Virus genome (UHGV): UHGV-0286028
From: a virus
Strand: one strand, 5' to 3'
DNA: 24,559 nucleotides
Numbering within the stretch: position 1 is the stretch's first letter; each line of letters begins with the position of its first letter. A model generated the notes under the pieces. It had not been told where the DNA came from, searched no databases, and worked only from the letters and a program-made list of their open reading frames with translations. The position numbers and the translations under genes are program-made. Positions 1 to 19,418 of the stretch are shown here, piece after piece.

Positions 1-48
1 TTAACAGCTAACTCATAGCAACTCATTCCTATTCATATACTAATTTAA

Positions 49-135: not shown

Positions 136-150
136 TTACCTTAAAGGTAT
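136..150. promoter_or_regulatory. Operator-like palindrome TTACC-TTAAA-GGTAT upstream of int (one mismatch to TTACC-N5-GGTAA)
   Basis: Matches the 15-bp inverted repeat found at the other operon starts in this window; lies about 45 bp upstream of the int start. Confidence 0.45.
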
Positions 151-192
151 ACTCTCATACCGTCATGAAAATGGTTTCTATACGGGTGAATT

Positions 193-1443
193 GTGCTTAC
201 CGATACAAAATTAAAAAACCTCAAGCCGCAGGACAAACTGTACAAGGTCTCCGATCGTGACGGGCTGTATGTAGCTGTGCTTACGTCAGGCACGGTCTCG
301 TTTCGCTATGACTACCGTATCAACGGTCGCCGCGAAACACTGGTAATCGGGCAGTATGGGCGTGACGGTATCAGCCTGGCAGAAGCGCGAGAAGAACTGA
401 TTGCTGCAAAGAAGCTGCTTAAAGCAGGCCAGTCACCGGCTGCGGCTAAACGTGACGGTATCAAAAAGATTCGTGGTGCCGAGACGTTTGCGGTACATAC
501 CGACAGTTATATGAAACACGTCATCCTGGCTGACAGTACCCGCGCAATGAAACAGGCGGTGATCGACCGTGACATACTTCCGGTTCTTGGCAATAAAATG
601 ATGGCTGAAATTACCACATCGATGGTTCGTGATTTGTGTGACCGGATTGTCGAACGCGGTGGCCGGGCAACAGCAGTGCAGGCCAGGGAGATCATCAGTA
701 GCGTATACCGTCACGCCAATGACCGTGGTCATGGTTTGTTTAATCCTGCGGCTGACATTAAACCTTCGTCTATCGCCATATTTAAACCACGAGAGCGAAC
801 ACTGACACCAGAAGAAATTGGCCTGTTCTTCCGCACGCTGGATGCCATTGGTGCTATGGGCACTATGAAAATGGCTTTAAAACTGGTGCTTATCACTATG
901 GTTCGTAAGGGCGAATTCACCAATGCAACGTGGGATGAAATAGATTTTAAAAAATGGACATGGACAATTCCTCCAGACCGCATGAAGGGAAGCCGGGCGC
1001 ACGTTATTTACCTGCCTAAACAGGCACAGGATATATTGGTCGGGTTGCAGATGTGCGCTGGTGGAAGTGAATATCTGGTTCCTGGTCGTTACAATTTCCG
1101 GAAGCCATTATCTAATGCCGCGCTGAACTCTCTGATCGACAGAACGGTGAAAATAATAAATGAAGATGGTGAGCATATTCAGGACTTCACTGTACATGAT
1201 ATGCGCCGTACAGCCAGTACGTTGTTGCATGAGGCTGGTTATCCTTCAGACTGGATTGAAAAGGCTCTGGCACATGAGCAGAAAGGTGTGCGCGCCGTAT
1301 ATAACAAAGCGGAATACGCCAGACAGCGCGCCTACATGTTGCAGCAGTGGGCCGATATGATTGATTCATGGATTGACGGGGAGCATACGGATCTGATTCC
1401 GTTCTCCCCGTCGAAGTTTGAGAAGTGGATGGCGGGGGAATAA
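193..1443 (+). CDS. int: Tyrosine site-specific integrase, P4/CP4-57-like family
   Basis: 416 aa; GTG start at 193; N-terminus MLTDTKLKNLKPQDKLYKVSDRDGLYV typical of the P4-type integrase arm-binding domain; C-terminal catalytic region with HDMRRT, LAHE and VRAVYNKAEY (R, H and Y catalytic residues). Confidence 0.93.
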   Translation: MLTDTKLKNLKPQDKLYKVSDRDGLYVAVLTSGTVSFRYDYRINGRRETLVIGQYGRDGISLAEAREELIAAKKLLKAGQSPAAAKRDGIKKIRGAETFAVHTDSYMKHVILADSTRAMKQAVIDRDILPVLGNKMMAEITTSMVRDLCDRIVERGGRATAVQAREIISSVYRHANDRGHGLFNPAADIKPSSIAIFKPRERTLTPEEIGLFFRTLDAIGAMGTMKMALKLVLITMVRKGEFTNATWDEIDFKKWTWTIPPDRMKGSRAHVIYLPKQAQDILVGLQMCAGGSEYLVPGRYNFRKPLSNAALNSLIDRTVKIINEDGEHIQDFTVHDMRRTASTLLHEAGYPSDWIEKALAHEQKGVRAVYNKAEYARQRAYMLQQWADMIDSWIDGEHTDLIPFSPSKFEKWMAGE

Positions 1444-1637
1444 CGTTTAATAGTTCTGCTGATTTTCTTCCATCTCTGCTTCTGCTGCCAGTGATTCAAT
1501 TTTGTTTTCGAATATTGCTGACAGTGTTGCAAATTCAGCATCAGTGACAGCGGGAATTGGAACAAACCTGATCCCGCTGTGTGCAAGCATGTTTGCAGTT
1601 TCAAGGCATTTTCTTAAATCTGCTGGTGATGCCCTGT

Positions 1638-2288
1638 TCATGCAGCACGCTCCCGCCCCTGGTTGTCTGTTGGTGACAGCGGAGCATTGCTGAATGCATT
1701 TGTTAATCCGCCAATATCCAACGCGTATCCAGGGTGTAGTTGCACTGCCGGGTCTTCGCACTGATTACCCCAAACATCGAAGCCATGAGACGTCTGGCGG
1801 GCGAACAGTTCAATGCGAGAAACATCGCCTAATAATTGCACAAGTTTTTCACGAACGATATCTGGCTTTCTTGAATGCTCAAGCCGCGGTGCGGTAAATG
1901 ACTGAACGATCCCTGCATTAATGCGCGTAGGTAGTTTTCCCTTTACCGCAAACAGGCAATCTTCACTATTGGCGCGAGTCATGTGTCCCATACCCATAAC
2001 CAGTTTATCTGGTTGTCGACTACCACATTTTATCCACGTGAAGCCCTTCATCGTCATCAGACGGAATCCCCAGGCTTCAACAACTTTTAGTGCTTCGAGT
2101 GGTTGTGTTGGCACCCACCACATGGCCAACAGACAGTTTTCATCGGCCAAATCCCACACAGGAAGGCGGCAGATATCCAGCACACTCATAACCGGATATT
2201 TAAAACCGGCACCGCGATTACCATCTGCGGCTTTGTCCCGGTATACCCAGGGTGGATCTGCATAGATTAGTGTGTATTTCTTAGTCAT
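1638..2288 (-). CDS. MT-A70 family DNA N6-adenine methyltransferase (orphan, phage Dam-like)
   Basis: ATG at 2288 (MTKKYTLIYADPPW...); DPPW catalytic motif; ATG overlaps the TAA stop of the upstream small ORF (ATGACTAA), indicating translational coupling. The longer ORF-track start at 2300 is a GTG. Confidence 0.8.
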   Translation of the reverse strand: MTKKYTLIYADPPWVYRDKAADGNRGAGFKYPVMSVLDICRLPVWDLADENCLLAMWWVPTQPLEALKVVEAWGFRLMTMKGFTWIKCGSRQPDKLVMGMGHMTRANSEDCLFAVKGKLPTRINAGIVQSFTAPRLEHSRKPDIVREKLVQLLGDVSRIELFARQTSHGFDVWGNQCEDPAVQLHPGYALDIGGLTNAFSNAPLSPTDNQGRERAA

Positions 2289-2580
2289 AAACCACCCCAC
2301 AACATCCTATGCCGCTATAGTCGCCACGGCGAAGGCCGTTACCTTTTGTGATACATTGGTCCCTGCGAACCGCGATCCTTGCACGTTCAACATCACCAGA
2401 AGCAACATCCATACACTGAAGCCAAAGGTGAGCGGCAATGCGGAATTGCCCTTTTTTCTCTCTTTCAATCGCGCGTTTTTCGATCTCTATCGCCGCAGGA
2501 GTAACGGCGACAATCTTTGACGGACTGCGCATTGAAACCTTATTCATGTGATATTTTTCAAGTCGGCTTAACTTTCTCAC
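2281..2580 (-). CDS. Hypothetical small protein translationally coupled to the methyltransferase
   Basis: 99-aa ORF (GTG at 2580 preceded by GAGGG; alternative ATG at 2547); stop overlaps the methyltransferase start. No recognisable motif. Confidence 0.45.
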   Translation of the reverse strand: MRKLSRLEKYHMNKVSMRSPSKIVAVTPAAIEIEKRAIEREKKGQFRIAAHLWLQCMDVASGDVERARIAVRRDQCITKGNGLRRGDYSGIGCCGVVYD

Positions 2581-2689
2581 TTAATCCAACCCTCTCTGAA
2601 AATTAATGCCAGCAGATAAAGCCATGCTGAAACAGAGGCCAGGAATAAGTACCATCCTGACCATTTGCTCCAGTGCCTTAGCAGCGCAC

Positions 2690-2938
2690 TCATGCAGCGT
2701 TGCTCACGGGACGATATACACGTTGCTGAACAGGAGGTTTTTTACCCTGGAACTCTGCCGGGCTTGCTGCCTGACGTTCATCAAGCCAACGCTCAACTTC
2801 GTCACGGTTCCATGCGCAGCGTTTGTCAGTGATATACCAGCGTTTAGGAAATTCCCCTGCGCGCTCCATACGGTCGATAGTGCTCCATGACAGTGGCACC
2901 ACCGCCAGGAGTTCCTTCTTACCTAATGCACCTTTCAT
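2690..2938 (-). CDS. AlpA-family HTH DNA-binding protein (putative excisionase / prophage regulator)
   Basis: 82 aa; KKELLAVVPLSWSTIDRMERAGEFPKRWYI matches the AlpA/Xis-type winged-helix pattern; AGAGAGG SD upstream of ATG 2938; position between recombination genes and int. Confidence 0.75.
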   Translation of the reverse strand: MKGALGKKELLAVVPLSWSTIDRMERAGEFPKRWYITDKRCAWNRDEVERWLDERQAASPAEFQGKKPPVQQRVYRPVSNAA

Positions 2939-2987
2939 AAATACCTCTCTTGGTTGCAGTGCGGCGCGTGTGGCGCCGCGGTGGTGG

Positions 2988-3929
2988 TTACATAGATGTT
3001 TCGTTTAATTCTTCCCGACGAACGCTGTAAACGTCGGTGGCTTTTGCCAGCAGTTCGTCATCATCTGAAAGTTTTTGTGCAATGTATTTGTAAGCCTTAT
3101 CCAGTTCGGAGACAGTGCTGTAATTCATCGCTGCGCTGGTAAAGGCCATCAGCATTTCTTCTGGATCACGGCTATCCGCTTTACGAGTTTGCTCATCAGG
3201 CTTTTTCACTGGTTTAGCGTTGATCAGACTGTTCATTCCCGCAGCAGTGGTCGTTTGCGGAGTAATGTCTCGCTCAACGCGCGGTGCCGTTTCCTGTAAT
3301 TCGTCTGGTGTGTAGACGCCCATGATTACGTCAGGACAGTGCAAGCGAGACCAGCGTTTTGTCGCAAGGTATGCGAGTTGTTGTTTCGGATCACTGGCCC
3401 AAAGTGTGGAGTTTCTTACCTGTGCTTGAGACAGCATTAACTCAAGCACTCGAGGTTGATCCTCGCCCTTCATGGTTGCCCATACGCGAACACCGCAGCC
3501 TTCTTCGTCTTTTAGAGTCCAGCCTGGTGCGATATATGGATTGCCGTTTTTGGATGTTTTCTCAACAAACTTACCGATCACGCGTTCCCACGGCCCGAAC
3601 CACTCGTAGTTGATGCGATCTTTTGTTGGCGACATCGTTGAGATAACTGCGTTTACTAATTGGGCTTCATAACCTAGCGTGCCGTTCACAACATGGGTTT
3701 TCTGAGCCACGGCAAACGGGTTCATTCCCCACTGCGCAGCCTGCATTGCCACGGCCATGCAATCAGCTGGTTTCCCGGCGAGGTGCGCCGGTACCGTTAC
3801 GCGGCTTTGCGCCATTACCTCGGCGAATTTCATCAGTTGGTTCAAGCCGTCTGGGCTGAAAATAGTTGCAGCAGTTCCAGCGATTGCTGTGTCTACTGGT
3901 GCGTTGATGTTTGCGATGTCGTTGCTCAT
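2988..3929 (-). CDS. recT: RecT/Red-beta family single-strand annealing recombinase
   Basis: ATG at 3929 overlaps the exonuclease stop (ATGA); core region (QWGMNPF ... KRWSRLHCPDVIMGVYTPDE) resembles the Bet/RecT fold pattern; immediately downstream of the partner exonuclease. Confidence 0.75.
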   Translation of the reverse strand: MSNDIANINAPVDTAIAGTAATIFSPDGLNQLMKFAEVMAQSRVTVPAHLAGKPADCMAVAMQAAQWGMNPFAVAQKTHVVNGTLGYEAQLVNAVISTMSPTKDRINYEWFGPWERVIGKFVEKTSKNGNPYIAPGWTLKDEEGCGVRVWATMKGEDQPRVLELMLSQAQVRNSTLWASDPKQQLAYLATKRWSRLHCPDVIMGVYTPDELQETAPRVERDITPQTTTAAGMNSLINAKPVKKPDEQTRKADSRDPEEMLMAFTSAAMNYSTVSELDKAYKYIAQKLSDDDELLAKATDVYSVRREELNETSM

Positions 3930-4747
3930 ATGTACATATCCTGTTTGCGTGCCCACTCAGGGCGTTTAATGATTTCCACACCGCCCCATTCATCATTTAT
4001 GCGGCATTCGTGATAGGTATTCAGATCCCGGCGGAACAGAGCGTGCCCGGCATCGACATCCGGCGCATCCAGCTCGAACACGCGTACCGGATACCGACCA
4101 CAATCAATGCTTTCGCTCACGGCAAGAAAGAAAAAACCATGCGGCTGACCAGTAACCCTCATTGCGCCTTCGCGGTACATTGCGTCCTGCACGTGGTAGC
4201 GGAATTCCTCGATGTGGCGTGCAAAACGGTCCATATCTGCAACCTTTTTCACGTCGACGATCACGTTGTGCTCGTTCAGCCATTTGTCTGGACGAATGCG
4301 GCACAACTCACCAGTCTCTTCATCATTCCAGTACATTGATGCTTCGCAGTAACCAGGTGCTTCCAGCATCCAGCGTGCCGCCGGGTGAGCCATTGCGCTA
4401 TCACGCATCAGCTCCAGTTTCCGCCACTGCTCGGCATCAAGTACCGTAATCCCCATATCCGCTACATCACGAAGAAATGCTTCTTCGTCAGCTTTACCTT
4501 GTTTCGTCCGACGATCGAACTTCGGTGAAACAATGAAGCGTTTGTCGAATTCTCCAGGCTCCAGAAGCAGACAGTGCAATGCGGTTCCCATATCCAGTGC
4601 AGACTTTTTCTCTTCGTCTTCTGGTGCTGCCTGGACCCATTTAAGAAGCGCCGGATTCTTGGCAACCATGTCCAGTTGCGACTTACTCACGCCGTCACCG
4701 GCGTGGTAGTCTTCGTTGCTGATGTCGAAATAAATTCCCGGTTTCAT
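3926..4747 (-). CDS. PD-(D/E)XK exonuclease (YqaJ / exonuclease VIII-like), recombination partner of RecT
   Basis: 273 aa; N-terminus MKPGIYFDISNEDYHAGDGVSKSQLDM typical of phage PDDEXK exonucleases; ATGA overlap with the upstream gene stop and with the recT start. Confidence 0.75.
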   Translation of the reverse strand: MKPGIYFDISNEDYHAGDGVSKSQLDMVAKNPALLKWVQAAPEDEEKKSALDMGTALHCLLLEPGEFDKRFIVSPKFDRRTKQGKADEEAFLRDVADMGITVLDAEQWRKLELMRDSAMAHPAARWMLEAPGYCEASMYWNDEETGELCRIRPDKWLNEHNVIVDVKKVADMDRFARHIEEFRYHVQDAMYREGAMRVTGQPHGFFFLAVSESIDCGRYPVRVFELDAPDVDAGHALFRRDLNTYHECRINDEWGGVEIIKRPEWARKQDMYI

Positions 4748-5043
4748 GCCGCGTCCCTCTGTCCATCAAGCTGATCCGCCAGATCCCAGCGGGCGATAAT
4801 TGCCATTGCCTCTCGCCGATAGGCATCCATCAGTTCTTCGAACTCAGGGCTGTCTTTAGCAGCCTCCAGTACTTCCTGACGAACGCCTTTGCCTGTTACA
4901 ACGTCAAAAGTTGAGGACAGTTGATGAAGTCGGATGCTCTCAATCAGTTCAACTTGTCGGTCATATAGCTGTTCTGACAGGCGGTAGTCCTTGTCGAATG
5001 CCAGCATGATTTTTTGAAGATTTTTCTGCTGATTAACGTTCAT
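4744..5043 (-). CDS. Hypothetical early protein
   Basis: ATG at 5043 (MNVNQQKN...) preceded by GGAGGG SD; coupled (ATGA) to the exonuclease gene. Confidence 0.5.
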   Translation of the reverse strand: MNVNQQKNLQKIMLAFDKDYRLSEQLYDRQVELIESIRLHQLSSTFDVVTGKGVRQEVLEAAKDSPEFEELMDAYRREAMAIIARWDLADQLDGQRDAA

Positions 5044-5045
5044 TA

Positions 5046-5198
5046 TCAGCCCTCCCATATCTCGTTATCGTTGGCTACATCGCGAGCTTCTTTGCTGACG
5101 AAAGCCCACTTAATGCCTTCCTGTAAGGTGCGGAACTTCCAGCTCATGAATCCGCATGCAGTAACGCAGTACCAACCGTTGATGATTTTCCACTGCAT
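5046..5198 (-). CDS. Small hypothetical protein (50 aa), first gene of the leftward early operon
   Basis: Below the ORF-track cutoff; I translated it as MQWKIINGWYCVTACGFMSWKFRTLQEGIKWAFVSKEARDVANDNEIWEG; GAGG about 9 nt upstream of the ATG; TGA stop 2 nt before the next ATG. Confidence 0.35.
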   Translation of the reverse strand: MQWKIINGWYCVTACGFMSWKFRTLQEGIKWAFVSKEARDVANDNEIWEG

Positions 5199-5217
5199 AA
5201 CTTGTTACCTCGGTCTG

Positions 5218-5232
5218 TTACCGTTGAGGTAA
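5218..5232. promoter_or_regulatory. Operator palindrome TTACC-GTTGA-GGTAA (leftward-promoter region, site 1)
   Basis: Perfect 5+5 inverted repeat with 5-bp spacer; between the repressor terminator and the leftward operon. Confidence 0.6.
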
Positions 5233-5279
5233 TAATTATGCGTATCTGGTTTGATCTCAATAGGTATGAGTTAAAAAAA

Positions 5280-5294
5280 TTACCCGTTAGGTAA
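5280..5294. promoter_or_regulatory. Operator palindrome TTACC-CGTTA-GGTAA (leftward-promoter region, site 2)
   Basis: Perfect inverted repeat, 62 bp centre-to-centre from site 1. Confidence 0.6.
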
Positions 5295-5305
5295 TCGAAT
5301 AGGCA

Positions 5306-5329
5306 ATAAAAAAGCCGCCATAAGGCGGC
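5306..5329 (-). terminator. Rho-independent terminator downstream of the repressor gene (minus strand)
   Basis: Stem GCCGCC (5314-5319) / GGCGGC (5324-5329), loop ATAA; A-run 5306-5313 on plus = U-run after the hairpin on the minus transcript. Confidence 0.65.
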
Positions 5330-5351
5330 TTACTTACTGAAAAATATGATT

Positions 5352-5936
5352 TTATTGTTTGTTTTTTTCGTTCTGGTTGATGACAAATTCAATGTAACTT
5401 TCGATCTTTGCCTTCTCTGTTTCAGGTAACAATGCGTAGCGCGAGCGGTCATAGTTGATAGTTGCAGGGTCATGCGGATGAATCAGTAGTTCATATCCGT
5501 GACGCCCGAATGCAGATGCAACATTCTCCAGGGTGGAAATGGAAACGCTGACCTCATTGTTTAACAGGCGGCTTATTGTCACCTGGGCGACGCCGGATGC
5601 GCGGTGAAGTTTTCCCTGAGTTGAAAGGTCGCGGCTTTCACTCATCCAGCGTTCCAGGTTGTGAGCTGCCAGCTGACCAATGTCGCTTGGGCCGACAGGC
5701 TGAAAACCTTCCTGAGAAAGCGAGCGATCGATATCAAGCCAGTTACGGGGTTTATTGGCGGCAGCTTCAATTTTTCGCGCAACCTGGTCGCCGATAACCT
5801 TCTTGCCAAGAGCCCAGCGGTTTACCAGATTTGCCTGAGTTCCAAGTTTTTCTGCCATCCGCGTCTGAACACCATTGAATTCACGGTCGATCAAGTCGTT
5901 GAGATTTTGCCTGCGGACGTCCTGGATACTTTTCAT
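5352..5936 (-). CDS. CI-like immunity repressor with two HTH (Cro/C1-type) domains and no peptidase domain
   Basis: 194 aa; N-terminal HTH pattern (TRMAEKLGTQANLVNRWALGKK) and a second HTH-like segment (GVAQVTISRLLNNEVSVSISTLENVASAFG); divergent from a Cro-like gene across a 154-bp region with three palindromic sites; no S24 Ala-Gly/Ser-Lys motifs seen. Confidence 0.6.
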   Translation of the reverse strand: MKSIQDVRRQNLNDLIDREFNGVQTRMAEKLGTQANLVNRWALGKKVIGDQVARKIEAAANKPRNWLDIDRSLSQEGFQPVGPSDIGQLAAHNLERWMSESRDLSTQGKLHRASGVAQVTISRLLNNEVSVSISTLENVASAFGRHGYELLIHPHDPATINYDRSRYALLPETEKAKIESYIEFVINQNEKNKQ

Positions 5937-5991
5937 TTTCTGGAAAATCGCCTCATATATGAATCAGTAGATGATTCAATTTAAAGCAATA

Positions 5992-6054
5992 TTACCCAAC
6001 AGGTAAATGCACCTCATAGGTAACTATCCTTGATTTTTGTTACCTTATGGGTGA
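5992..6054. promoter_or_regulatory. Tripartite operator cluster between repressor and cro-like genes (5992-6006, 6009-6023, 6040-6054)
   Basis: TTACC-CAACA-GGTAA (perfect), GCACC-TCATA-GGTAA (degenerate left half), TTACC-TTATG-GGTGA (one mismatch); spacing 17 and 31 bp, reminiscent of an OR1-3 arrangement. Confidence 0.65.
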
Positions 6055-6090
6055 ATATTTATTATCTGAAATAAATATCAGGCAATAGCT

Positions 6091-6321
6091 ATGAGCGATA
6101 ACGGACATTTCGATTTCAAAAAGCACTGGCTTGCACTTACTCCGGATGAGCGTGAAGCCTTCGCACAGGAAGCCGGAACGACGAGTCACTATATCCAGAC
6201 TCACTTAACAGGTAAGCGCAAAATGCCAGGTAAGGTATTGATGAATGGGCTTTTTAAAGCCTGTAAAACAAGACAATGGCTGCGCTCAAAAGCAGAACTG
6301 GCATACTTCTTCTACTCATGA
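6091..6321 (+). CDS. Cro-like / YdaS-like small HTH regulator (first gene of the rightward early operon)
   Basis: 76 aa; LTPDEREAFAQEAGTTSHYIQTHLTGKRKMP resembles a short HTH; divergent from the repressor. Confidence 0.5.
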   Translation: MSDNGHFDFKKHWLALTPDEREAFAQEAGTTSHYIQTHLTGKRKMPGKVLMNGLFKACKTRQWLRSKAELAYFFYS

Positions 6322-6343
6322 TATCCAGCTACAACCCTCTGTA

Positions 6344-6365
6344 GACCGCCACCCGGCGGTCTTTT
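6344..6365 (+). terminator. Rho-independent terminator after the cro-like gene (tR1-like position)
   Basis: Stem GACCGCC (6344-6350) / GGCGGTC (6355-6361), loop ACCC, then TTTT. Confidence 0.65.
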
Positions 6366-6376
6366 CATATCTATTC

Positions 6377-6391
6377 GTACCTCAAAGGTAA
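6377..6391. promoter_or_regulatory. Operator-like palindrome GTACC-TCAAA-GGTAA just downstream of the post-cro terminator
   Basis: One mismatch to TTACC-N5-GGTAA; 12 bp after the terminator T-run. Confidence 0.45.
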
Positions 6392-6469
6392 TAAAAAACC
6401 AAATCTGGTTGATCAAATTTTCCAATTGTGCAAAATAGCCAATATCAATAACAAAAAGGGGCGGAAAAA

Positions 6470-6682
6470 TTGAAGATAGTAACCAGAATGGAGGCCGCAA
6501 AAGCCGGGTTAAATCGCTATTTCACAGGAAAGCGGTGCCGTCACGGCCATCTCTCTGAAAGGTATGTTCTGAACGGAACATGTGTTGAATGTGCAATGAA
6601 TAGCGCCAACCGCCATCGTAATGAATTTGCTTGTGCACTAAAGAGTGCAAGAGGGGAAACCTATGGCAAGCAGCTGGATTAA
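6470..6682 (+). CDS. Small Cys/His-rich (zinc-ribbon-like) protein
   Basis: 70 aa from a TTG start preceded by AAGGGG; C-x-H-G-H ... C-x-x-C spacing (KRCRHGH ... GTCVECA); 3' end overlaps the start of the O-like gene by 20 nt. Confidence 0.4.
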   Translation: MKIVTRMEAAKAGLNRYFTGKRCRHGHLSERYVLNGTCVECAMNSANRHRNEFACALKSARGETYGKQLD

Positions 6683-8235: not shown

Positions 8236-8240
8236 TACCA

Positions 8241-8260
8241 GCGCGATAGCGCATTTTTTT
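8241..8260 (+). terminator. Weak terminator-like hairpin plus T7 run after the P-like gene
   Basis: GCGC-GATA-GCGC followed by ATTTTTTT. Confidence 0.4.
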
Positions 8261-8272
8261 ACGTTTCAATGA

Positions 8273-8287
8273 TTACCTGACGGGTAA
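8273..8287. promoter_or_regulatory. Operator palindrome TTACC-TGACG-GGTAA
   Basis: Perfect inverted repeat in the P / DUF1064 intergenic region. Confidence 0.6.
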
Positions 8288-8335
8288 TAAAATATTCTAA
8301 AATCTATTGATTTCGTGTCTTATGTGGTTTTTAAT

Positions 8336-8350
8336 TACCTTGGAGGTAAA
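8336..8350. promoter_or_regulatory. Operator palindrome TTACC-TTGGA-GGTAA overlapping the Shine-Dalgarno of the next gene
   Basis: Perfect inverted repeat; the GGAGG inside it is the RBS for the ATG at 8353. Confidence 0.6.
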
Positions 8351-8352
8351 TC

Positions 8353-8697
8353 ATGAAAAAACAGATACAGGCTCTTGGTCGACTCAAAACAGGCCAGATG
8401 AACAAAACAGAATCTGCGTATTGCCAGCACCTTGAGCAGCGTAAACGTGCAGGGGAAATCGCCTGGTATCGATTCGAGGGTATCAAGCTGCGGTTAGCTG
8501 ACAACACGTTCTATACGCCCGATTTTGCTGTGATGCTCGCCACCGGCGAGATGGAACTGCACGAAGTGAAAGGTTTCTGGACCGACGACGCCAGGGTGAA
8601 AACCAAAGTCGCCGCAGATCAGTATCCGTTCCGAATCATCGGGGTAACGGTTAAACCAAAGAAAGCAGGTGGTGGCTGGAACATCGAAGAGTTCTGA
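8353..8697 (+). CDS. DUF1064-like protein, predicted PD-(D/E)XK nuclease fold
   Basis: 114 aa; YTPDFAV ... ELHEVKG fits a D ... E-x-K nuclease motif; position equivalent to the nin-region recombination/resolvase genes of lambdoid phages. Confidence 0.55.
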   Translation: MKKQIQALGRLKTGQMNKTESAYCQHLEQRKRAGEIAWYRFEGIKLRLADNTFYTPDFAVMLATGEMELHEVKGFWTDDARVKTKVAADQYPFRIIGVTVKPKKAGGGWNIEEF

Positions 8698-8758
8698 ATC
8701 GACGATCTTTTTAGTTATCAATGTAATCAATAAGTTATGTGGATAATCGAGGGTAAAG

Positions 8759-9253
8759 ATGGAAAGTAATATCAAAGGGTTAGTTGCCGCCGGGCATGAG
8801 ATGGCTTCGGAACTGAAAGCAGAATGTGGTGCCGTTGATATGCGCAGTGTGGCAAAGCTGATCAGCGATTTGGCAACGCAACTGGAAGTGCAACTGGCGC
8901 GTGCTAATGCGCTGGCAGCGGAGAATGCGGCGCTGAAGGCTGCGCACCCTCAACCATTCGGACCTGAGATGATGAAGGCTCTTGATGCGTATGAGAAGTA
9001 TCAGGATGAAGTGCCGGAGACTGGGATGCTCAATGCATTTTTCATCTTGCGCGACAGTATCCGTGTTGACACCCCAGCCACCGATGCTTTCCTGTCTGAA
9101 GTACGGGCGCAGGGGGTGGATATGGCTCGTAACGCGATGATTGATTTTGTTGATGGTGAAGTTGGGCCAAACAAGAACGTTCCGGGGCTGATTAGAGGCG
9201 CAGAGATATGCGTAAGTATTGCTGAACAGCTTCGCAAAGGAGGCAACCAGTGA
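8759..9253 (+). CDS. Hypothetical protein (Ala-rich, probable coiled coil in N-terminal half)
   Basis: 164 aa, GAGGG SD, no recognisable motif. Confidence 0.5.
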   Translation: MESNIKGLVAAGHEMASELKAECGAVDMRSVAKLISDLATQLEVQLARANALAAENAALKAAHPQPFGPEMMKALDAYEKYQDEVPETGMLNAFFILRDSIRVDTPATDAFLSEVRAQGVDMARNAMIDFVDGEVGPNKNVPGLIRGAEICVSIAEQLRKGGNQ

Positions 9254-9816
9254 GCAAGATTAATTATCAGGCACTGCGTGAGGCGGCAGAGAAAGCCGGT
9301 GAAGATAAGTGGCAGGCTAAAAAAATAAATGGTGATTTTTTCGTTATTCGTCACGGTAGTTATACAAGACAGCATGGATACACATCGTATCAACCCATTG
9401 CTGAGATTGATTGTAAGCCAGTCCGTGATTTTGTTGCCAAGGCTAATCCGGCAACCGTGCTGGCGCTTCTGGATGAACGGGAAAGAAACCAGCAATACAT
9501 CAAACGCCGCGACCAGGAGAACGAGGATATTGCGCTAACGGTAGGGAAGCTGCGCGTTGAGCTTGAGGAGACAAAATCAAAACTCAACGAGCAGCGCGAG
9601 TATTACGAGGGAGTTATCTCTGATGGGTGCAAGCGTATTGCTGAACTGGAAGCGCGGGAAGTTCAATTACCGACTCGCTACGACCTTCGATATGGACACC
9701 CGATAAATGAAGGTGAGCGACAAGTCATGATACCTAAAGAAAATGGCAGTTGGCTTTACCTGATTGACCTAGAACACGCATTACGCGTCGCTGGCATTCG
9801 CATCAAAGGAGAGTGA
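9250..9816 (+). CDS. Ead/Ea22-like protein
   Basis: GTG start overlapping the upstream stop; N-terminus MSKINYQALREAAEKAGEDKWQ is the characteristic Ea22-family start; central coiled-coil region. Confidence 0.7.
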   Translation: MSKINYQALREAAEKAGEDKWQAKKINGDFFVIRHGSYTRQHGYTSYQPIAEIDCKPVRDFVAKANPATVLALLDERERNQQYIKRRDQENEDIALTVGKLRVELEETKSKLNEQREYYEGVISDGCKRIAELEAREVQLPTRYDLRYGHPINEGERQVMIPKENGSWLYLIDLEHALRVAGIRIKGE

Positions 9817-9817
9817 G

Positions 9818-10006
9818 ATGAACGGACAAATATCAATTATTCGCCCTGGCGCTTGTGACGAAGAGATAAGGCTGATTATCCGCCTTGCGATGGGTAGAAC
9901 AATAACTGCTCTCATTACTCCAGAAAATCTCGCATTAGCATTAACCGGAAAGTCAGACCTGCCAGTAGAGCTAAAGCTGCGAAATGTTGAGATTAAGGTG
10001 AAATAG
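9818..10006 (+). CDS. Small hypothetical protein
   Basis: 62-aa ORF in tight series with its neighbours. Confidence 0.35.
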   Translation: MNGQISIIRPGACDEEIRLIIRLAMGRTITALITPENLALALTGKSDLPVELKLRNVEIKVK

Positions 10007-10008
10007 CT

Positions 10009-10815
10009 ATGACCACTATTACCAAAGAGCGACTACTGACAATCAAGCAGTGGCGCGAAACATACGGACCTGGTAGCAACGTTGTACTGCCAGCAGAAGA
10101 AGCGGAAGAACTGGCACGAATTGCTCTGGCATCACTGGAGGCAGAGCCAGTGGCAAAAATTATAGCTCACTACCCATTAGGAATTGACGTAGGCAAACAA
10201 AAGTTCGTACAGGCCATTGGAGAGCTTCCTGACTTTGGAGGATATCTATTCGCCGCTCCACCTGTGCCGGTAACACAGGCTAATGTCGCGCAAGCAATTG
10301 AAAATCTCAAGCAGAAGTTAGTGGAATGCAATCGCTATAACTACTGCGCAGATGCAGTTAAGGGCGTAGAGGATGCCTGCCGTGCTGTTAGCTATAGCCA
10401 AGCCGACAATCAACCAGCATCTGGCAACCAGGCTGCCGAATCCAATCGCGGTAATGAGTGGACTGGCAATCCTGATATTGATAACGCCATCATCATGCTC
10501 GACCGCATAGATACGCTGGAAAATTGCGATGATGACCGTATTGAGGCTGTTAAGGCTGTTTTGCGTAGACTGGCTGGCAACTATCCGGTAACTCCGGATG
10601 GTTGGATAAGCTGTAGTGAGCGAATGCCGAATACCAAAACAGCCGTTCTTGTTGCCGTGGAGTTTGACAGGAAAGGTGACTGGCGAATGAAATGGGCTAC
10701 TTACATCCCGGGGCATCCTGACGCTAATGATGGATGGATAATTCCTGGTGCGTCGTGGAAACCGTCACACTGGATGCCGCTACCGGAACCACCGCAGGAG
10801 GTTAACCGTGGCTAA
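10009..10815 (+). CDS. DUF551 domain-containing protein
   Basis: 268 aa; C-terminal W/P-rich segment (WISCSERMP ... WIIPGASWKPSHWMPLPEPP) typical of the DUF551 phage domain. Confidence 0.6.
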   Translation: MTTITKERLLTIKQWRETYGPGSNVVLPAEEAEELARIALASLEAEPVAKIIAHYPLGIDVGKQKFVQAIGELPDFGGYLFAAPPVPVTQANVAQAIENLKQKLVECNRYNYCADAVKGVEDACRAVSYSQADNQPASGNQAAESNRGNEWTGNPDIDNAIIMLDRIDTLENCDDDRIEAVKAVLRRLAGNYPVTPDGWISCSERMPNTKTAVLVAVEFDRKGDWRMKWATYIPGHPDANDGWIIPGASWKPSHWMPLPEPPQEVNRG

Positions 10816-11089
10816 CCTGCAACTTGCCGTTAGATGTGAATACTTCGACGCCATGATTCGCGGAGAGAAAACGGAAGAGTATCGCCTGTGTAATGACTAC
10901 TGGAATAAACGCCTCGTTAATCGTAAGTATGACCGCCTGATTATCACAAAGGGATATCCGAAGCGCGACGATTCCAGCCGCAGAATTGATGTTCCGTATG
11001 ACGGATATGAAATCAAGACAATCACACATCCACACTTCGGTGATAAACCGGTAAAGGTGTTCGCGATAAAGGTGAATATTGATGGCTAA
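10808..11089 (+). CDS. ASCH-domain protein (PUA-like fold)
   Basis: GTG at 10808 with AGGAGG SD 6 nt upstream; IRGEKTEEYR matches the ASCH G-x-K-x-x-E-x-R signature; 93 aa. Confidence 0.6.
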   Translation: MANLQLAVRCEYFDAMIRGEKTEEYRLCNDYWNKRLVNRKYDRLIITKGYPKRDDSSRRIDVPYDGYEIKTITHPHFGDKPVKVFAIKVNIDG

Positions 11090-11420
11090 ATCAGCAGCAG
11101 AGCGCAAAGCCGCTCAGAGAGCCAGACAAGCTGAATCCGGTGTGCGTAAGCTGGAAATTGTGCTTGATGCTCAGGAAATTGAAATGCTGGAGCGTAACTG
11201 TGCCACGCGTCGCCCCGGGCGTGCGCCTTACGAATTTGGTGAGTATATAGCGTTACTGATCCGCCAGGATGATGCACGCGTGCGCGGGCGTATAAAATCG
11301 ATCAGCAGAAAACGTTGCGGTAAGTGCGGCGAGAGCGTTCCTGTGAATTCATGCCCGTGTAATGGTGACTCGCAATGCTGGGTGACCAAAGGCTGGCATG
11401 AAACGAAATTAATAGTGTGA
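11082..11420 (+). CDS. Hypothetical protein with C-terminal Cys cluster (zinc-ribbon-like)
   Basis: ATG 11082; N-terminal basic segment; C-terminus CGKCGESVPVNSCPCNGDSQC. Confidence 0.5.
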   Translation: MAKSAAERKAAQRARQAESGVRKLEIVLDAQEIEMLERNCATRRPGRAPYEFGEYIALLIRQDDARVRGRIKSISRKRCGKCGESVPVNSCPCNGDSQCWVTKGWHETKLIV

Positions 11421-11650
11421 CATGTCACGAAGGTGTTATGCCAAAAATACGCTACGACCTTGAAGATATGAGAGATAACTCAGCAAATTTTCCGAAAGAG
11501 GTTAAATTTCTCATGCATAAGTATGGTTGCGCCAAGAGGGATATAGTTATCGACAGTCAGCACCCTTGCGGCGAGGATGTAATTTTCATTCGCGGTAAAT
11601 GGGAAGGGTATCTTGACGAGAGTTTTTACGATGAATTTGATGGACTTTGA
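11417..11650 (+). CDS. Small hypothetical protein, last gene before the late-operon terminator
   Basis: 77-aa ORF with ATGA-type overlap to the upstream gene. Confidence 0.4.
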   Translation: MTCHEGVMPKIRYDLEDMRDNSANFPKEVKFLMHKYGCAKRDIVIDSQHPCGEDVIFIRGKWEGYLDESFYDEFDGL

Positions 11651-11655
11651 ATACT

Positions 11656-11681
11656 GCCGCCAACTATGGCGGCTTTATTTT
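11656..11681 (+). terminator. Rho-independent terminator between the early/accessory block and the terminase genes
   Basis: Perfect stem GCCGCCA (11656-11662) / TGGCGGC (11667-11673), loop ACTA, then TTTATTTT. Confidence 0.75.
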
Positions 11682-11692
11682 GCATGGTACTA

Positions 11693-11725
11693 TTACCACA
11701 ACGGTAACTATTACCACGGTGGTTA
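11693..11725. promoter_or_regulatory. Twin operator palindromes directly upstream of, and overlapping, the terminase small-subunit start
   Basis: TTACC-ACAAC-GGTAA (11693-11707, perfect) and TTACC-ACGGT-GGTTA (11711-11725, one mismatch); the second ends at the first base of the ATG at 11725. Confidence 0.55.
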
Positions 11726-12321
11726 TGATGCCTGCTGAACCTAAAACCTATAAACGCAAATCAACGCAATTTAAGCCACTAACAGCAATGCAGGAGGCTT
11801 ATTGCCAGTCATACATCAAAACGCCTGAAAACCAGACTCAGGCAGCGATTAACGCAGGATTCTCCCCAAATACAGCGGCAGTTAAAGCCAGTGTCATGAT
11901 GCGCGATGAACGCATTCAAAAACGGATTGCCGAGTTGATGGAGGAGCGCAACAAACGAATGCGCGTCAGTGCTGATTACGTTCTCATGCGCCTGGTGGAG
12001 ATCGACCAGATGGACGTGATCGACATCCTCAACGACGATGGGAGCCTTAAACCAATCCGTGAGTGGCCGAAAATCTGGCGCACTACGCTTAGTGGCTTTG
12101 ATCTGTCATCGACCATCATGAACATGAACGAGGATTCGATAGAGACAATCCTCAAAAAAATTAAATGGCCTGACAAGGTGAAGAACCTCGAACTGATTGG
12201 TAAGCACGTCGACGTCAACGCATTCAAAGAACGCCTGGATGTTAATGTGAATGTGACAATTGCTGATCGCATAGCGGCAGCCAGGAAGAGACTGAAAGAA
12301 CGTCAGGATGGCAATCAGTGA
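11725..12321 (+). CDS. Terminase small subunit
   Basis: ATG at 11725 (MMPAEPKTYKRK...); LTAMQEAYCQSYIKTPENQTQAAINAGFSPNTAAVKASVMMRDERIQKRI matches the small-terminase HTH region; stop overlaps the large-subunit start. The ORF-track start 11647 is a TTG inside the terminator. Confidence 0.7.
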   Translation: MMPAEPKTYKRKSTQFKPLTAMQEAYCQSYIKTPENQTQAAINAGFSPNTAAVKASVMMRDERIQKRIAELMEERNKRMRVSADYVLMRLVEIDQMDVIDILNDDGSLKPIREWPKIWRTTLSGFDLSSTIMNMNEDSIETILKKIKWPDKVKNLELIGKHVDVNAFKERLDVNVNVTIADRIAAARKRLKERQDGNQ

Positions 12322-13793
12322 CAGATACAGCGTTATCTCCTGAAGAGCAGTTAATCGAGGATATTGCAGGGTTCACTCACGATCCGCTTGGCTATGCCCT
12401 CTATGCGTTCCCGTGGGGGGAAGAGGGTACTGAACTGGCATATGCTACCGGCCCACGTCAGTGGCAGGCTGATGCGTTCCGAGAGATACGTGATCACCTG
12501 CAGAATCCAGAGACGCGCTATCAGCCGCTTATGCTGGCACGCGCTTCTGGTCACGGTATTGGTAAATCCGCATTCATCTCAATGCTGATCAACTGGGGCA
12601 TGTCCACTTGCGAGGATTGTAAGGTCGTGGTGACCGCCAACACCGACAACCAGCTACGAACGAAGACCTGGCCGGAAATTATCAAGTGGTCGAACCTTGC
12701 TATCACGAAAGACTGGTTTACCTGTACCGCTACCGCGATGTACAGCAATGACCCTGGGCACGACAAGCGGTGGCGTGCTGACGCAATACCCTGGTCTGAG
12801 CACAACACTGAGGCGTTCGCCGGACTACACAACGAGCGCAAACGCATCATCGTGGTGTTTGATGAAGCGTCGAACATTGCGGATCTGGTGTGGGAAGTTG
12901 CCGAAGGTGCGCTAACGGACGAAGACACTGAGATTATCTGGGTGGCGTTCGGAAACCCGACGCGTAATACCGGACGTTTCCGTGAATGTTTCCGCAAGTA
13001 TAAACACCGCTGGAAAACTGCGCAGATTGACAGTCGGACGGTGGAAGGTACCAACAAACAGCAGTTGCAGAAATGGGTTGATGACTACGGGGAAGACAGC
13101 GACTTCGTTAAAATCCGTGTGCGTGGCATATTCCCTGATGCATCTGAATTGCAGTTTATCCCTACCGGTCTTACTGACGAGGCAATGAAACGGGTGGTAA
13201 CCGCTGCGCAGGTTGCACATGCTCCGGTGATAATCGGCGTTGACCCGGCATACTCCGGCGTTGATGACGCTGTGATATACCTGCGGCAGGGGCTACACAG
13301 TAAGGTGCTGTGGACTGGCAACAAGACTACCGACGATCTGATTATGGCGAAGCGTATCGCTGACTTTGAAGACCAGTATCAGGCTGACGCGGTGTTCATC
13401 GACTTCGGTTACGGAACCGGTTTGAAGTCAATCGGTGACGGCTGGGGTCGTACATGGCAACTTGTTCCGTTCGGTGGCGCGTCTACTGACCCGCAGATGC
13501 TTAACAAGCGTGGGGAGATGTTCAACTCATGCAAGACATGGCTGAGGCTCGGCGGCATGCTGGATGACCGGGAAACAGCGGACGACCTGTCGACGGCAGA
13601 GTACAAAGTTCGCGTGGACGGTAAAATCGTTATCGAACCGAAGGAAGATATCAAAGAGCGACTTGGGCGTTCGCCGGGTAAAGGCGATGCGCTACTGCTG
13701 ACGTTTGCTTTCCCTGTGTCGAAGCGTCTGCGAATTCCTGGGCAGCAGAACCAGCAAGGCAAGGCCATCACAGATTATGACCCGTATGCTTAA
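12318..13793 (+). CDS. Terminase large subunit
   Basis: 491 aa; N-terminal ATPase region with P-loop-like GHGIGKSAF and acidic VVFDEAS (Walker B-like); C-terminal nuclease-like region (IGVDPAYSG ... FIDFGYG); position after the small subunit. Confidence 0.88.
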   Translation: MTDTALSPEEQLIEDIAGFTHDPLGYALYAFPWGEEGTELAYATGPRQWQADAFREIRDHLQNPETRYQPLMLARASGHGIGKSAFISMLINWGMSTCEDCKVVVTANTDNQLRTKTWPEIIKWSNLAITKDWFTCTATAMYSNDPGHDKRWRADAIPWSEHNTEAFAGLHNERKRIIVVFDEASNIADLVWEVAEGALTDEDTEIIWVAFGNPTRNTGRFRECFRKYKHRWKTAQIDSRTVEGTNKQQLQKWVDDYGEDSDFVKIRVRGIFPDASELQFIPTGLTDEAMKRVVTAAQVAHAPVIIGVDPAYSGVDDAVIYLRQGLHSKVLWTGNKTTDDLIMAKRIADFEDQYQADAVFIDFGYGTGLKSIGDGWGRTWQLVPFGGASTDPQMLNKRGEMFNSCKTWLRLGGMLDDRETADDLSTAEYKVRVDGKIVIEPKEDIKERLGRSPGKGDALLLTFAFPVSKRLRIPGQQNQQGKAITDYDPYA

Positions 13794-13841
13794 TCCGCTG
13801 GTGGGGATAATGTCGTTGATATCCTCTGATGAGGATAAAAT

Positions 13842-13872
13842 AAAGCCCGCGCATTTGGCGGGCTTTATTTTT
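13842..13872. terminator. Bidirectional rho-independent terminator after terL
   Basis: AAAGCCCGC / GCGGGCTTT stem with 7-nt loop, flanked by A/T runs on both sides; serves terL (+) and the converging minus-strand gene. Confidence 0.75.
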
Positions 13873-13878
13873 AAATAA

Positions 13879-14226
13879 TTATTTCTTGATAATATTTCCA
13901 GACATTGTGCTGGCGTTTCCACCAACAGTTTCGCAGATTACATCTCCAGACATGGTGTTTACATTTCCCAATACATTGGAACAATGGACATCACCAGACA
14001 TAGTTTTCACATAATGTGCATCACCGCTTACAGTCACTGATCCATTTTCAATCTCAACACCTTCCACGCTTCCATTAATTGTTACGTTAATCTGTCCGTC
14101 AAGATTGCTATTTTTTTCGACACCATCAACGATCACTTTTCCATTGTTAATCGTAATATGATGACCAGTGAAGTCTTCTCCGTTGACGCTAACGCTAGCA
14201 CCACGTACGTTATTGATTTTAATCAT
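13879..14226 (-). CDS. Beta-solenoid repeat protein (bactofilin-like), moron
   Basis: 115 aa; internal repeats (TMSGDV x2, TMSGNI; INVTINGSVEGVEIENGSVTVSGD); GAGGA SD 9 nt upstream of the ATG; flanked by its own terminators; opposite strand to the phage operons. Confidence 0.55.
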   Translation of the reverse strand: MIKINNVRGASVSVNGEDFTGHHITINNGKVIVDGVEKNSNLDGQINVTINGSVEGVEIENGSVTVSGDAHYVKTMSGDVHCSNVLGNVNTMSGDVICETVGGNASTMSGNIIKK

Positions 14227-14334
14227 TATAAATCATCCTCTTTTTGAATCGAGATTAACCTCAGGAGATACTATGACATGTTTTTCATGTATGTCGTAAT
14301 CTGCATCGATATCATAATTGTGACGTATCACGCC

Positions 14335-14359
14335 AAAAAAAATGCCCGGCGAACCGGGC
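14335..14359 (-). terminator. Rho-independent terminator (minus strand) ending the tRNA transcript
   Basis: Stem GCCCGG (14344-14349) / CCGGGC (14354-14359), loop CGAA; A8 run on plus (14335-14342) = U8 on the minus transcript. Confidence 0.7.
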
Positions 14360-14443
14360 GAACTGGAAGCAATGAGTTATGCCTTCCGTGGCTGTACTGG
14401 TTTACAGCATGAAGTCATCGCAATGGCGTCCTGCTGTAAAAAG

Positions 14444-14479
14444 GGCGGTGATGGTTTCCCTTGAAGGACTATCACCGCC
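14444..14479. repeat. Large inverted repeat / stem-loop in the tRNA 3' trailer
   Basis: GGCGGTGAT (14444-14452) and ATCACCGCC (14471-14479), perfect 9-bp arms with an 18-nt spacer that contains a secondary CCTT/AAGG pairing. Confidence 0.5.
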
Positions 14480-14522
14480 AAGCCCCTGGAACTTCTGGCA
14501 TCACGGTCCTTAGGCGTGATTC

Positions 14523-14599
14523 TGGCGTGGCATGCAGGATTCGAACCTGCGACCAACCGCTTAGAAGACGGTTGCTCTGTCCAACTGAGCTAATGCCAC
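14523..14599 (-). tRNA. tRNA-Arg (anticodon UCU), phage-borne, argU-like
   Basis: 77 nt; I folded the reverse complement by hand: acceptor GTGGCAT/ATGCCAC, D-arm GCTC-AGTTGGACA-GAGC, anticodon stem ACCGT/GCGGT with loop CTTCTAA (U33, UCU, A37), T-arm GCAGG-TTCGAAT-CCTGC, discriminator G, encoded CCA. Confidence 0.9.
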
Positions 14600-14880
14600 A
14601 ACGCTGAGAGCACTTAGCCTGTTAAGGCGCCACACTTTGTCGCGGCTCCATAAATGCTCTCATCGTTGTACCCTCGTCTCTTCCGAGGCGTCACACCGAA
14701 TCGCCGGGATGGTGAATCCCCGTGCGCGGAATAAAACCGCTCGACTTGCACATTCCGGCTACCTGGTTCGTTTGCCCGAGCAAGGGAGGGTGCCCCTTAA
14801 ACGTATCCAGACCGCTATCGGCGCATGTGCCATACGCCGTACTGCTCAAAATAAAAGCTCACTCCACCTGTTCAATTTAA
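14600..14880 (-). other. Candidate structured non-coding leader upstream of the tRNA (function unknown)
   Basis: About 280 bp with no credible ORF on either strand (the only ORF, 14637-14900 +, has an R/S/H-rich, non-protein-like composition); several local hairpins (GAGAGCA 14606-14612 / TGCTCTC 14655-14661; CCTCG 14672-14676 / CGAGG 14684-14688). Confidence 0.3.
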
Positions 14881-14921
14881 CGACAAGCCAGTCAGGTTAA
14901 TAACCGGAATGAACCATTTGC

Positions 14922-14936
14922 TTACCTGAAAGGTAA
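14922..14936. promoter_or_regulatory. Operator palindrome TTACC-TGAAA-GGTAA upstream of the structural operon
   Basis: Perfect inverted repeat between the tRNA-leader region and the first structural gene. Confidence 0.6.
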
Positions 14937-15026
14937 TAATTCGTGCGTTAAATGTCAACTATCTACGATAAATAAATCATATGTGGTTAAATTGGTAATA
15001 ATTTAATTGCGTACGGAGTCATTGAT

Positions 15027-15233: not shown

Positions 15234-15247
15234 CCGGAGTCATTGAA

Positions 15248-17220: not shown

Positions 17221-17222
17221 TC

Positions 17223-17918: not shown

Positions 17919-17932
17919 GAGAGGAAATGACA

Positions 17933-18919: not shown

Positions 18920-18935
18920 CGCCTGTTATTAACCT

Positions 18936-18955
18936 GTGGGTCGTAACAGACCCAC
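18936..18955 (+). other. Stem-loop immediately downstream of the capsid gene
   Basis: GTGGGTC (18936-18942) / GACCCAC (18949-18955), 6-nt loop, no T-run. Confidence 0.45.
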
Positions 18956-19408: not shown

Positions 19409-19418
19409 GGTGATATTG

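Follow-up and report, generated by a model that had tools for sequence, protein, structure and literature searches.

How does one short palindrome come to stand before so many separate genes of a single phage, and which protein reads it? The question is raised by UHGV-0286028, a viral stretch of 24,559 nucleotides that was analysed whole and is called the window here. In this DNA the palindrome TTACC-N5-GGTAA recurs between positions 136 and 14936, and an earlier note had ascribed it to one phage repressor encoded at 5352-5936. The present analysis leads to a similar answer. The twelve sites found in the window are very probably the operators of that protein, Rep, the master lysogeny repressor of a Uetakevirus prophage. 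Judged by nucleotide identity, the window is an epsilon15/phiV10-like prophage of E. coli that belongs to this genus. With the E. coli podoviruses vB_EcoP_ZX5, TL-2011b and phiV10, all members of Uetakevirus, it shares about 98% identity; the type phage of the genus is Salmonella phage epsilon15. At least 80% of the window is carried by 424 of 5,426 complete E. coli genomes. In one E. coli genome that carries it, the prophage lies directly after guaA, the attachment site reported for ZX5, phiV10 and epsilon15.

An exact search of the window returned seven perfect copies (5218, 5280, 5992, 8273, 8335, 11693 and 14922), whereas only 0.02 would be expected, and none of 100 dinucleotide shuffles reached seven. 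The chance figure of about 0.02 per window in the earlier note is matched by the shuffles (0.02). Six of the seven perfect positions stand as it gave them, and 8336 is corrected to 8335. Four more copies carry one mismatch, namely 136 (GGTAT), 6040 (GGTGA), 6377 (GTACC) and 11711 (GGTTA), and one copy with two mismatches was accepted (6009, GCACC). Two-mismatch matches occur about 29 times per 50 kb in 84 kb of E. coli DNA that flanks a sister prophage. This class alone carries no information, and the 15 other two-mismatch matches in the window are background. The credibility of site 6009 comes solely from its distance of 17 bp to 5992 and from the perfect site that epsilon15, SPC32H and BUCT711 have at the same position. 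The same 84 kb of host DNA holds six one-mismatch matches and no perfect copy, and the 16-kb remainder of the sister prophage holds four perfect sites, around ant/tailspike and accessory genes. All twelve sites of the window lie inside its seven non-coding gaps longer than 75 bp, as drawn from the map of open reading frames and from annotated relatives, and every gap holds at least one. The gaps add up to about 1.64 kb (6.7% of the window). In the 9.6 kb of structural genes (14937-24559), no copy with at most one mismatch is present. The claim of at least twelve intergenic copies, seven perfect and five mismatched, is borne out, and the sites are enriched in intergenic regions of the prophage over the host. 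The motif is fully palindromic (5-N5-5), its flanks are symmetric and its centre is A/T. Its extended consensus, A-TTACC-TTWAA-GGTAA-T, is a palindrome of 17 bp in which the central base is nearly always A or T.

All relatives examined, 16 genomes in nine genera, have the motif at syntenic places. Six whole phage genomes, those of epsilon15, SPC32H, Tyrion, BUCT711, ZX5 and TL-2011b, contain 9–11 perfect sites each, with 11 in epsilon15 and 10, at the same places, in SPC32H. Nine further prophage loci, from Superficieibacter, Erwinia, Klebsiella, Citrobacter, Scandinavium, Serratia and E. coli, contain 5–9 perfect sites within 12–21 kb each. The spacings are also kept. At the leftward promoter PL and at the operon led by the DUF1064 gene (the DUF1064/RuvC operon), two sites are 62 bp apart in 13 of 14 pairs and 63 bp apart in the remaining one. 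In the operator region OR, between rep and the cro-like gene, the distances are 17 bp (seven times) and 30–31 bp (seven times), and the pair before terS is spaced by 18 bp (six times). Five intergenic regions of five diverged genomes were aligned without reference to the motif. Invariant columns made up 92% of the half-sites, compared with 20% of the N5 spacer and 33% of the other intergenic positions (Fisher p 8e-28 and 2e-17), so that the half-sites are, by this alignment, a phylogenetic footprint. In every full-length relative from the homology search, down to 54% identity (Serratia, helix NLISRW), TTACC-N5-GGTAA is the commonest 5-N-5 palindrome, and it is so too in relatives with a Rep only 41–45% identical, taken from a locus scan and phage records.

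The properties of Rep fit such a motif. Its sequence matches PDB entry 5D50, the Rep of SPC32H, over residues 1-190 (E 4e-42), and its C-terminus matches 5D4Z, the C-terminal tetramer of SPC32H Rep. It is 100% identical to ZX5 ORF21 and phiV10 p40 and about 42% identical to SPC32H Rep and epsilon15 gp38. The divergence lies mostly in the C-terminal part, which binds the antirepressor Ant. Across the Rep family, 35 of 70 positions are invariant in the N-terminal domain as against 34 of about 100 in the Ant-binding part. Kim et al. (2016) reportedly crystallised the C-terminal part as a tetramerisation and Ant-binding module, and the N-terminal helix-turn-helix (HTH) is said to bind DNA. Pfam recognises HTH_3 at residues 106-147 and, weakly, an HTH-like region at 21-61; it gives no match to a Peptidase_S24 domain in Rep. 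The earlier description of a dual-HTH repressor holds for the two HTH-like regions, but the one visible to Pfam (106-147) belongs to the C-terminal oligomerisation part, and the DNA-binding HTH is N-terminal. The putative recognition helix, NLVNRW, is invariant in Reps that are only 42–45% identical and nearly so in 86 homologues. Homologues that share only the N-terminal domain and have another helix (Paraburkholderia, Hydrogenovibrio, Thiomicrospira) have no such motif nearby, which lends weak support to the link between Rep and the motif. Overexpression of ZX5 ORF21 abolished free phage and lowered holin and endolysin mRNA by 99.97–99.99% (PMC9782041). According to secondary sources, SPC32H Rep binds palindromic DNA as a tetramer in which the DNA-binding dimers are drawn from different dimers (PMC9638917, citing Kim et al. 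2016), and its tetramerisation domain is assigned to a ‘TetDloop’ fold associated with DNA looping (PMC9986798). From position in the immunity region, homology, conservation and the annotation of epsilon15, the motif is almost certainly the one recognised by Rep. The view that one phage repressor (5352-5936) has operators over early, replication, packaging and integration regions agrees with the homology, the rep/cro sites, the footprint and the epsilon15 labels.

Much of this was already on record. The epsilon15 entry (NC_004775.2 / AY150271.2) contains seven features labelled ‘protein_bind, repressor, lysogeny’, and all seven coincide with perfect copies of TTACC-N5-GGTAA. They account for 7 of its 11 perfect sites; the OR triplet, the second site of a 62-bp pair and the sites upstream of int and the lysis genes are omitted. 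The motif, its assignment to a repressor and the Rep/Ant mechanism are already known from public records and papers. The result is a rediscovery, ordinary for the genus, and for this reason no new question is opened by it. A literature search on Uetakevirus and phiV10 operators found nothing on operators, and a full-text search with the half-site gave primer noise only. The LF82 prophage ‘Gally’ was considered as a relevant system and rejected, as its repressor is named C2 and it has Mnt and a Q antiterminator, which makes it another type. The positions of the predicted sites and of the genes around them are collected in the table.

Table. Predicted operators, non-coding gaps and genes of the window, with the features of relatives used for comparison (window coordinates unless another genome is named; sites are candidate operators of Rep).
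Feature	Positions	Strand	Remarks
Operator-like site upstream of int, TTACCTTAAAGGTAT, one mismatch	136-150		
PL-proximal operator, perfect	5218-5232		abuts the −10 of predicted PL and covers the transcription start
PL-distal operator, perfect	5280-5294		62 bp from the proximal one
OR operator over the −35 of predicted PRM, perfect	5992-6006		
OR middle operator, GCACCTCATAGGTAA, two mismatches	6009-6023		17 bp from 5992, just upstream of the PRM −35
OR operator inside predicted PR, one mismatch	6040-6054		
Post-cro site, GTACCTCAAAGGTAA, one mismatch	6377-6391		just after terminator 6343-6362, 18 bp upstream of −35-like TTGATC
Distal operator upstream of DUF1064 operon, perfect	8273-8287		
Proximal operator of DUF1064 operon, perfect	8335-8349		starts at the last −10 base, contains Shine-Dalgarno GGAGG
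First operator upstream of terS, perfect	11693-11707		after terminator 11656-11673; homologous to epsilon15 site 12-27
Second operator upstream of terS, one mismatch (GGTTA)	11711-11725		18 bp from the first, ends at the terS start codon
Operator in the divergent region between tRNA-Arg unit (leftward) and portal operon (rightward), perfect	14922-14936		homologous to epsilon15 site 2931-2947
Seven non-coding gaps	1-192, 5199-5351, 5937-6090, 6322-6469, 8236-8352, 11651-11727, 14227-15026		
int	193-1443		
Leftward early operon	ends at 5198		
rep, predicted master repressor	5352-5936	-	194 amino acids; N-terminal HTH and C-terminal HTH_3-like oligomerisation domain
cro-like gene, first of the rightward early operon	6091-6321	+	76 amino acids; phrog_35 transcriptional repressor, E 5.6e-13
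Replication genes	between cro-like gene and DUF1064 operon		
DUF1064-led operon	from 8353		
phrog_536 transcriptional regulator	11079-11420	+	homologue of epsilon15 gp49 / phiV10 p55; just before the terminator and terS operators
terS/terL	from 11728		
Moron, phrog_3163 (function unknown)	13879-14226	-	115 amino acids, no Pfam match; between terL and tRNA, terminators on both sides
tRNA-Arg(UCU)	14523-14599	-	
Portal/head/tail operon	right of the tRNA-Arg unit	+	rightward
epsilon15 repressor feature	12-27		before terS
epsilon15 repressor feature	2931-2947		before gp3/portal
epsilon15 repressor feature	19895-19911		between gp19 and the tail fibre gene
epsilon15 repressor features	32479-32494, 32554-32570, 32616-32632		PL region
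epsilon15 repressor feature	35906-35922		before the operon that follows the replication genes
Lysis-upstream regions compared	L002 24704, L004 24782, L005 26408; L007 (ZX5) 5662-5970; L003 38987-39345		

Which promoters would these sites control? A simple promoter scan gave fewer sigma-70 matches than shuffles overall. For this reason, promoter assignments rest on position and conservation and not on score alone. The divergent region between rep and the cro-like gene contains three sites that lie over the predicted promoters of both. Predicted PRM, the rep promoter, consists of TTACCT (6006-6001) and TAAATT (5983-5978), and predicted PR of TTGTTA (6037-6042) and TATTAT (6060-6065), each pair of hexamers with a spacer of 17 nt. 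With operators 17 and 31 bp apart overlapping PR and PRM, the region would work as a lambda-type switch. The perfect site lies on PRM, and a mismatched one lies on PR.

A common design is seen at three other places, where the last T of the −10 hexamer is also the first T of the operator. These are predicted PL (leftward; TTGAGA 5260-5255, 17 nt, AATTAT 5237-5232), the predicted DUF1064 promoter (TTGATT 8307-8312, 17 nt, TTTAAT 8330-8335) and a TG-extended −10-like TACTAT upstream of terS (11688-11693). At PL and at the DUF1064 promoter, another operator lies further upstream at a distance of exactly 62 bp, or about six helical turns, and one Rep tetramer could hold both members of such a pair by means of a small loop. 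At terS, the tandem pair would cover the −10-like element together with the ribosome-binding site. At 8335 (GGAGGTAAatcATG) and at terS, the Shine-Dalgarno sequence includes bases of the right half-site. More generally, a half-site GGTAA or GGTTA overlaps the Shine-Dalgarno sequence of the first gene in three operons (5205-5211, GAGGTAA; 8340-8349, GGAGGTAA; 11718-11730, GGTGGTTA). Because of this overlap, the same bases serve as operator and ribosome-binding site, and the leaders are very short.

The remaining sites would be single operators: one follows the cro terminator, one falls in the tRNA-Arg/portal divergent region and one precedes int. Terminators precede the control regions of int (47-70), the replication genes (6343-6362) and terS (11656-11673), which are separate transcription units. 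Tyrion, ZX5 and BUCT711 also have site 6377, and epsilon15 and SPC32H have CACC variants of it. At 14922, the best predicted promoter is directed leftward. It has a consensus −35, TTGACA (14958-14953), a 17-nt spacer and TACCTT (14935-14930) inside the operator. The predicted leftward unit (14344-14958, minus strand) has a leader of about 330 nt with structure above that of shuffles (z −2.8), then the tRNA-Arg and a terminator at 14359-14344, and tRNA-Arg(UCU) is probably the cargo of this promoter. An Rfam search of the non-coding stretch at 14.2–15.0 kb returned nothing besides the tRNA, and the leader upstream of it has no Rfam match. A partner half-site, TGGTTAAATTGGTAA, at 14984 lies 62 bp from 14922; it was rejected as a general rule, because in the analogous tailspike region of ZX5 the element stands at a distance of 50 bp. 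At site 136, the GGTAT mismatch is kept in epsilon15, SPC32H, Tyrion and BUCT711 and yields a −10-like TATACT at 148-153. This site is nested in a 9-bp inverted repeat, TGACGGTAT (128-136) and ATACCGTCA (156-164), and the surrounding region is conserved throughout. In the epsilon15 record, the stretch homologous to 128-164 is marked with integrase-binding and RNase III sites. Consequently, 128-164 could be a hairpin in the 5' untranslated region of int or an arm-type site, either instead of a Rep operator or in addition to one.

From these elements, the following mechanism can be proposed. The N-terminal HTH domains of Rep would recognise the 17-bp palindrome. In the lysogen, Rep would shut several separate transcription units directly and not only through a cascade from PL and PR. 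Induction would proceed through the small antirepressor Ant, whose gene is predicted to be under host LexA and to lie outside the window, next to the tailspike gene. RecA-stimulated self-cleavage would play no part, because Rep has no S24 peptidase domain. The closest relatives of the window, ZX5 and TL-2011b, encode an 85-residue protein whose identity to SPC32H Ant is 80% or more, and the LexA box CTGTATATTTATACAG precedes its gene. Prophages of the phiV10 type are induced by a DNA-damaging microcin. An 85-residue gene (WP_001188252.1, L020 39688-39945) is also found in the sister E. coli prophage at the position that corresponds to ant, a likeness of position only.

A second intergenic motif, CATAT(G/A/C)TGGTT, was noticed in the window at 5244, 6403, 8322 and 14981 (plus strand) and in ZX5 at 2470 and 5900. 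Matches to ATNTGGTT number 10 in the window, compared with 3.6 expected, and 18 in ZX5, compared with 5.6. Before the portal, tailspike and lysis operons, CATATnTGGTT is followed after 7 nt by a −10-like hexamer, and the E. coli lysis operon, which lacks a Rep site, also has it upstream.

Several observations weigh against the assignment of all twelve sites to Rep, or limit its reach. Site 136 is ambiguous and the least certain of the operators. The order of matches in OR would be the reverse of the affinity order in lambda if the core match predicts affinity. No credible sigma-70 −35 was found upstream of terS on inspection for promoters. At 14922, rightward promoter candidates are weak and the site fits the leftward promoter better, and a single site located 50–100 bp before a late operon is in a poor position to act by simple occlusion. 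Through 14922, Rep would at most be a candidate regulator of the structural operon. The earlier note had placed sites at the int and structural operons; the sites are there, but the first is ambiguous and the best promoter at the second leads to the tRNA-Arg. Its statement that every operon start carries the palindrome is too broad beyond the limits of the window. In the E. coli phages, no site precedes the lysis operon, not even with two mismatches allowed. These phages have no leftward gene before that operon either. In the Salmonella and Enterobacter relatives, a Rep site stands between leftward O-antigen conversion genes and the lysis operon, and some ‘late’ sites may serve divergent leftward promoters. 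CATATnTGGTT may be a late-promoter element or an activator site, and perhaps the real late signal. Searches by homology and by locus found no full-length relative with a changed motif, so no co-variation of Rep and motif could be followed. The sites annotated in epsilon15 may themselves be predictions. Finally, the Cro-like protein probably shares at least the OR sites.

This last point leads to the alternative that the palindromes are mainly sites of the Cro-like protein (6091-6321), or are shared equally by it and Rep, the dispersed copies then serving to turn down early and middle transcription in the lytic cycle. In lambda, P22 and 434, Cro and the repressor recognise the same operators. 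The cro-like gene adjoins the three OR sites, is equivalent to phiV10 p41 and epsilon15 gp39, and encodes a product of 76 residues that matches phrog_35 ‘transcriptional repressor’. The epsilon15 record, however, assigns the sites to the repressor, the invariant N-terminal helix of Rep matches the invariant half-site, and a tetrameric Rep explains the paired sites. A leading role for Cro is considered unlikely, although it could coexist with Rep as the master repressor.

The copies outside OR and PL could also be activator sites or promoter elements of a middle or late programme, for example those of the phrog_536 regulator encoded at 11079-11420. Such a reading would account for the missing −35 upstream of terS, for the distance of 50–100 bp between the portal and tailspike sites and their genes, and for the presence of a regulator gene just before terS. 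It is nevertheless very improbable. The sites outside OR and PL have the same sequence and flanks as those within, and at PL, the DUF1064 operon and terS the site extends from the last −10 base over the start site, which is a repressing position. CATATnTGGTT, found where Rep sites are absent, is the better candidate for a late-promoter element. Least credible of all, and hardly to be entertained, is that the motif is the site of a host factor or a non-regulatory repeat used in recombination, packaging or restriction-modification. A link to packaging can be imagined from the location of the terS pair, which is at the left end in the linear records of epsilon15, SPC32H and Tyrion, and the phage encodes methyltransferases, which could speak for a restriction-modification target. 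Against this, host DNA is free of perfect copies over 84 kb, the sites are strictly intergenic and adjoin promoters, they are conserved together with the Rep family across nine host genera, and three of them lie in the rep/cro switch region. We know of no E. coli factor with a TTACC-N5-GGTAA site. Operators of Rep therefore remain the preferred explanation.

Among known systems, the closest is the Rep-operator system of Uetakevirus itself, with which the window shares a full-length Rep homologue, the identical motif and syntenic sites of conserved spacing. Epsilon15 resembles the window in the core motif, in the positions at terS, the portal operon, PL and the operon after the replication genes, in the spacings of 62 and 18 bp and in the homologous repressor. 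It differs by a third PL operator, 76 bp away, and by a site before the lysis genes, neither of which the E. coli phages have. The Rep/Ant system of SPC32H (PDB 5D50, 5D4Z) has the same motif at the same places and a Rep homologue, and Ant with a LexA box is found in the closest relatives of the window. In contrast, its Rep is only about 42% identical, and the ant gene of the window would lie beyond the end of the window.

Among more distant systems, P1 C1 and phiC31 CIR resemble the window in logic only. Dispersed operators occur here in seven control regions, and more are found in the whole genomes of relatives. In P1, the C1 repressor acts at many dispersed operators before separate operons and is inactivated by antirepressors. 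The operators of P1 are asymmetric 17-mers, and its late genes are served by the C1-controlled activator Lpa, without operators at the late promoters themselves. Dispersed operators and an antirepressor are thus common to C1 and Rep, whereas the C1 protein is not known to be related and its operators are asymmetric. In phiC31, the conserved inverted repeats (CIR) are palindromes of about 17 bp in many intergenic regions and are bound by the oligomerising c repressor. The dispersed-palindrome logic is alike, but host and motif are unrelated, the proteins are not known to be related, and phiC31 has no lambda-like divergent switch with three operators. The stoperators of L5 and Bxb1 are asymmetric 13-mers, co-oriented with transcription and often placed in or between genes inside operons, where they block elongation. 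Multiple asymmetric operators are mentioned in PMC1934351 as well. The window resembles L5 and Bxb1 in its many sites per genome and in predicted repression beyond the early promoters; unlike stoperators, its sites are palindromic and lie at promoters just after terminators. They are neither asymmetric nor co-oriented inside transcription units. With lambda, the window shares three operators between divergent rep and cro genes over PR- and PRM-like promoters, as well as operators at PL. It differs from lambda in that Rep has no self-cleavage domain and that operators are found at five other control regions and in 62-bp pairs. The sites are not confined to PL and PR, since further ones lie at 136, 6377, 8273/8335, 11693/11711 and 14922, and no N- or Q-type antitermination gene was recognised in this comparison. 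By these analogies, the design may be described as a lambda-like OR with extra promoter operators, closer to P1 C1 or phiC31 CIR than to L5 stoperators. The earlier note had set it nearer to phiC31 CIR and stoperators than to lambda. The CIR-like dispersal stands, but the stoperator comparison fails and a lambda-like OR is kept.

The system would explain how prophages of the epsilon15/phiV10 type, which are common in E. coli, are kept silent by a single repressor that acts on many promoters. Its layout is highly stereotyped: some operators form 62-bp pairs, and operators merge with the −10 hexamer and with the ribosome-binding site. It can be used in annotating such prophages, in engineering phiV10-based reporter phages and in predicting cross-immunity. 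Of what is left, the seemingly frozen specificity of the operators across genera and the stereotyped 62-bp pairs are of greatest interest. If specificity is frozen, immunity would not be decided by repressor-operator recognition as it is in lambdoid phages, because about 14 operators would have to change together. It is conceivable, though rather unlikely, that specificity is frozen across the Rep family, that immunity is set by the divergent C-terminal domain of Rep and its cognate Ant, and that 62-bp loops held by Rep tetramers gate packaging and replication operons without an antitermination cascade.

Two neighbouring genes may be added. The phrog_536 protein encoded at 11079-11420 is a candidate late regulator. 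The moron at 13879-14226 occupies the position of epsilon15 gene p50, a likeness by position only.

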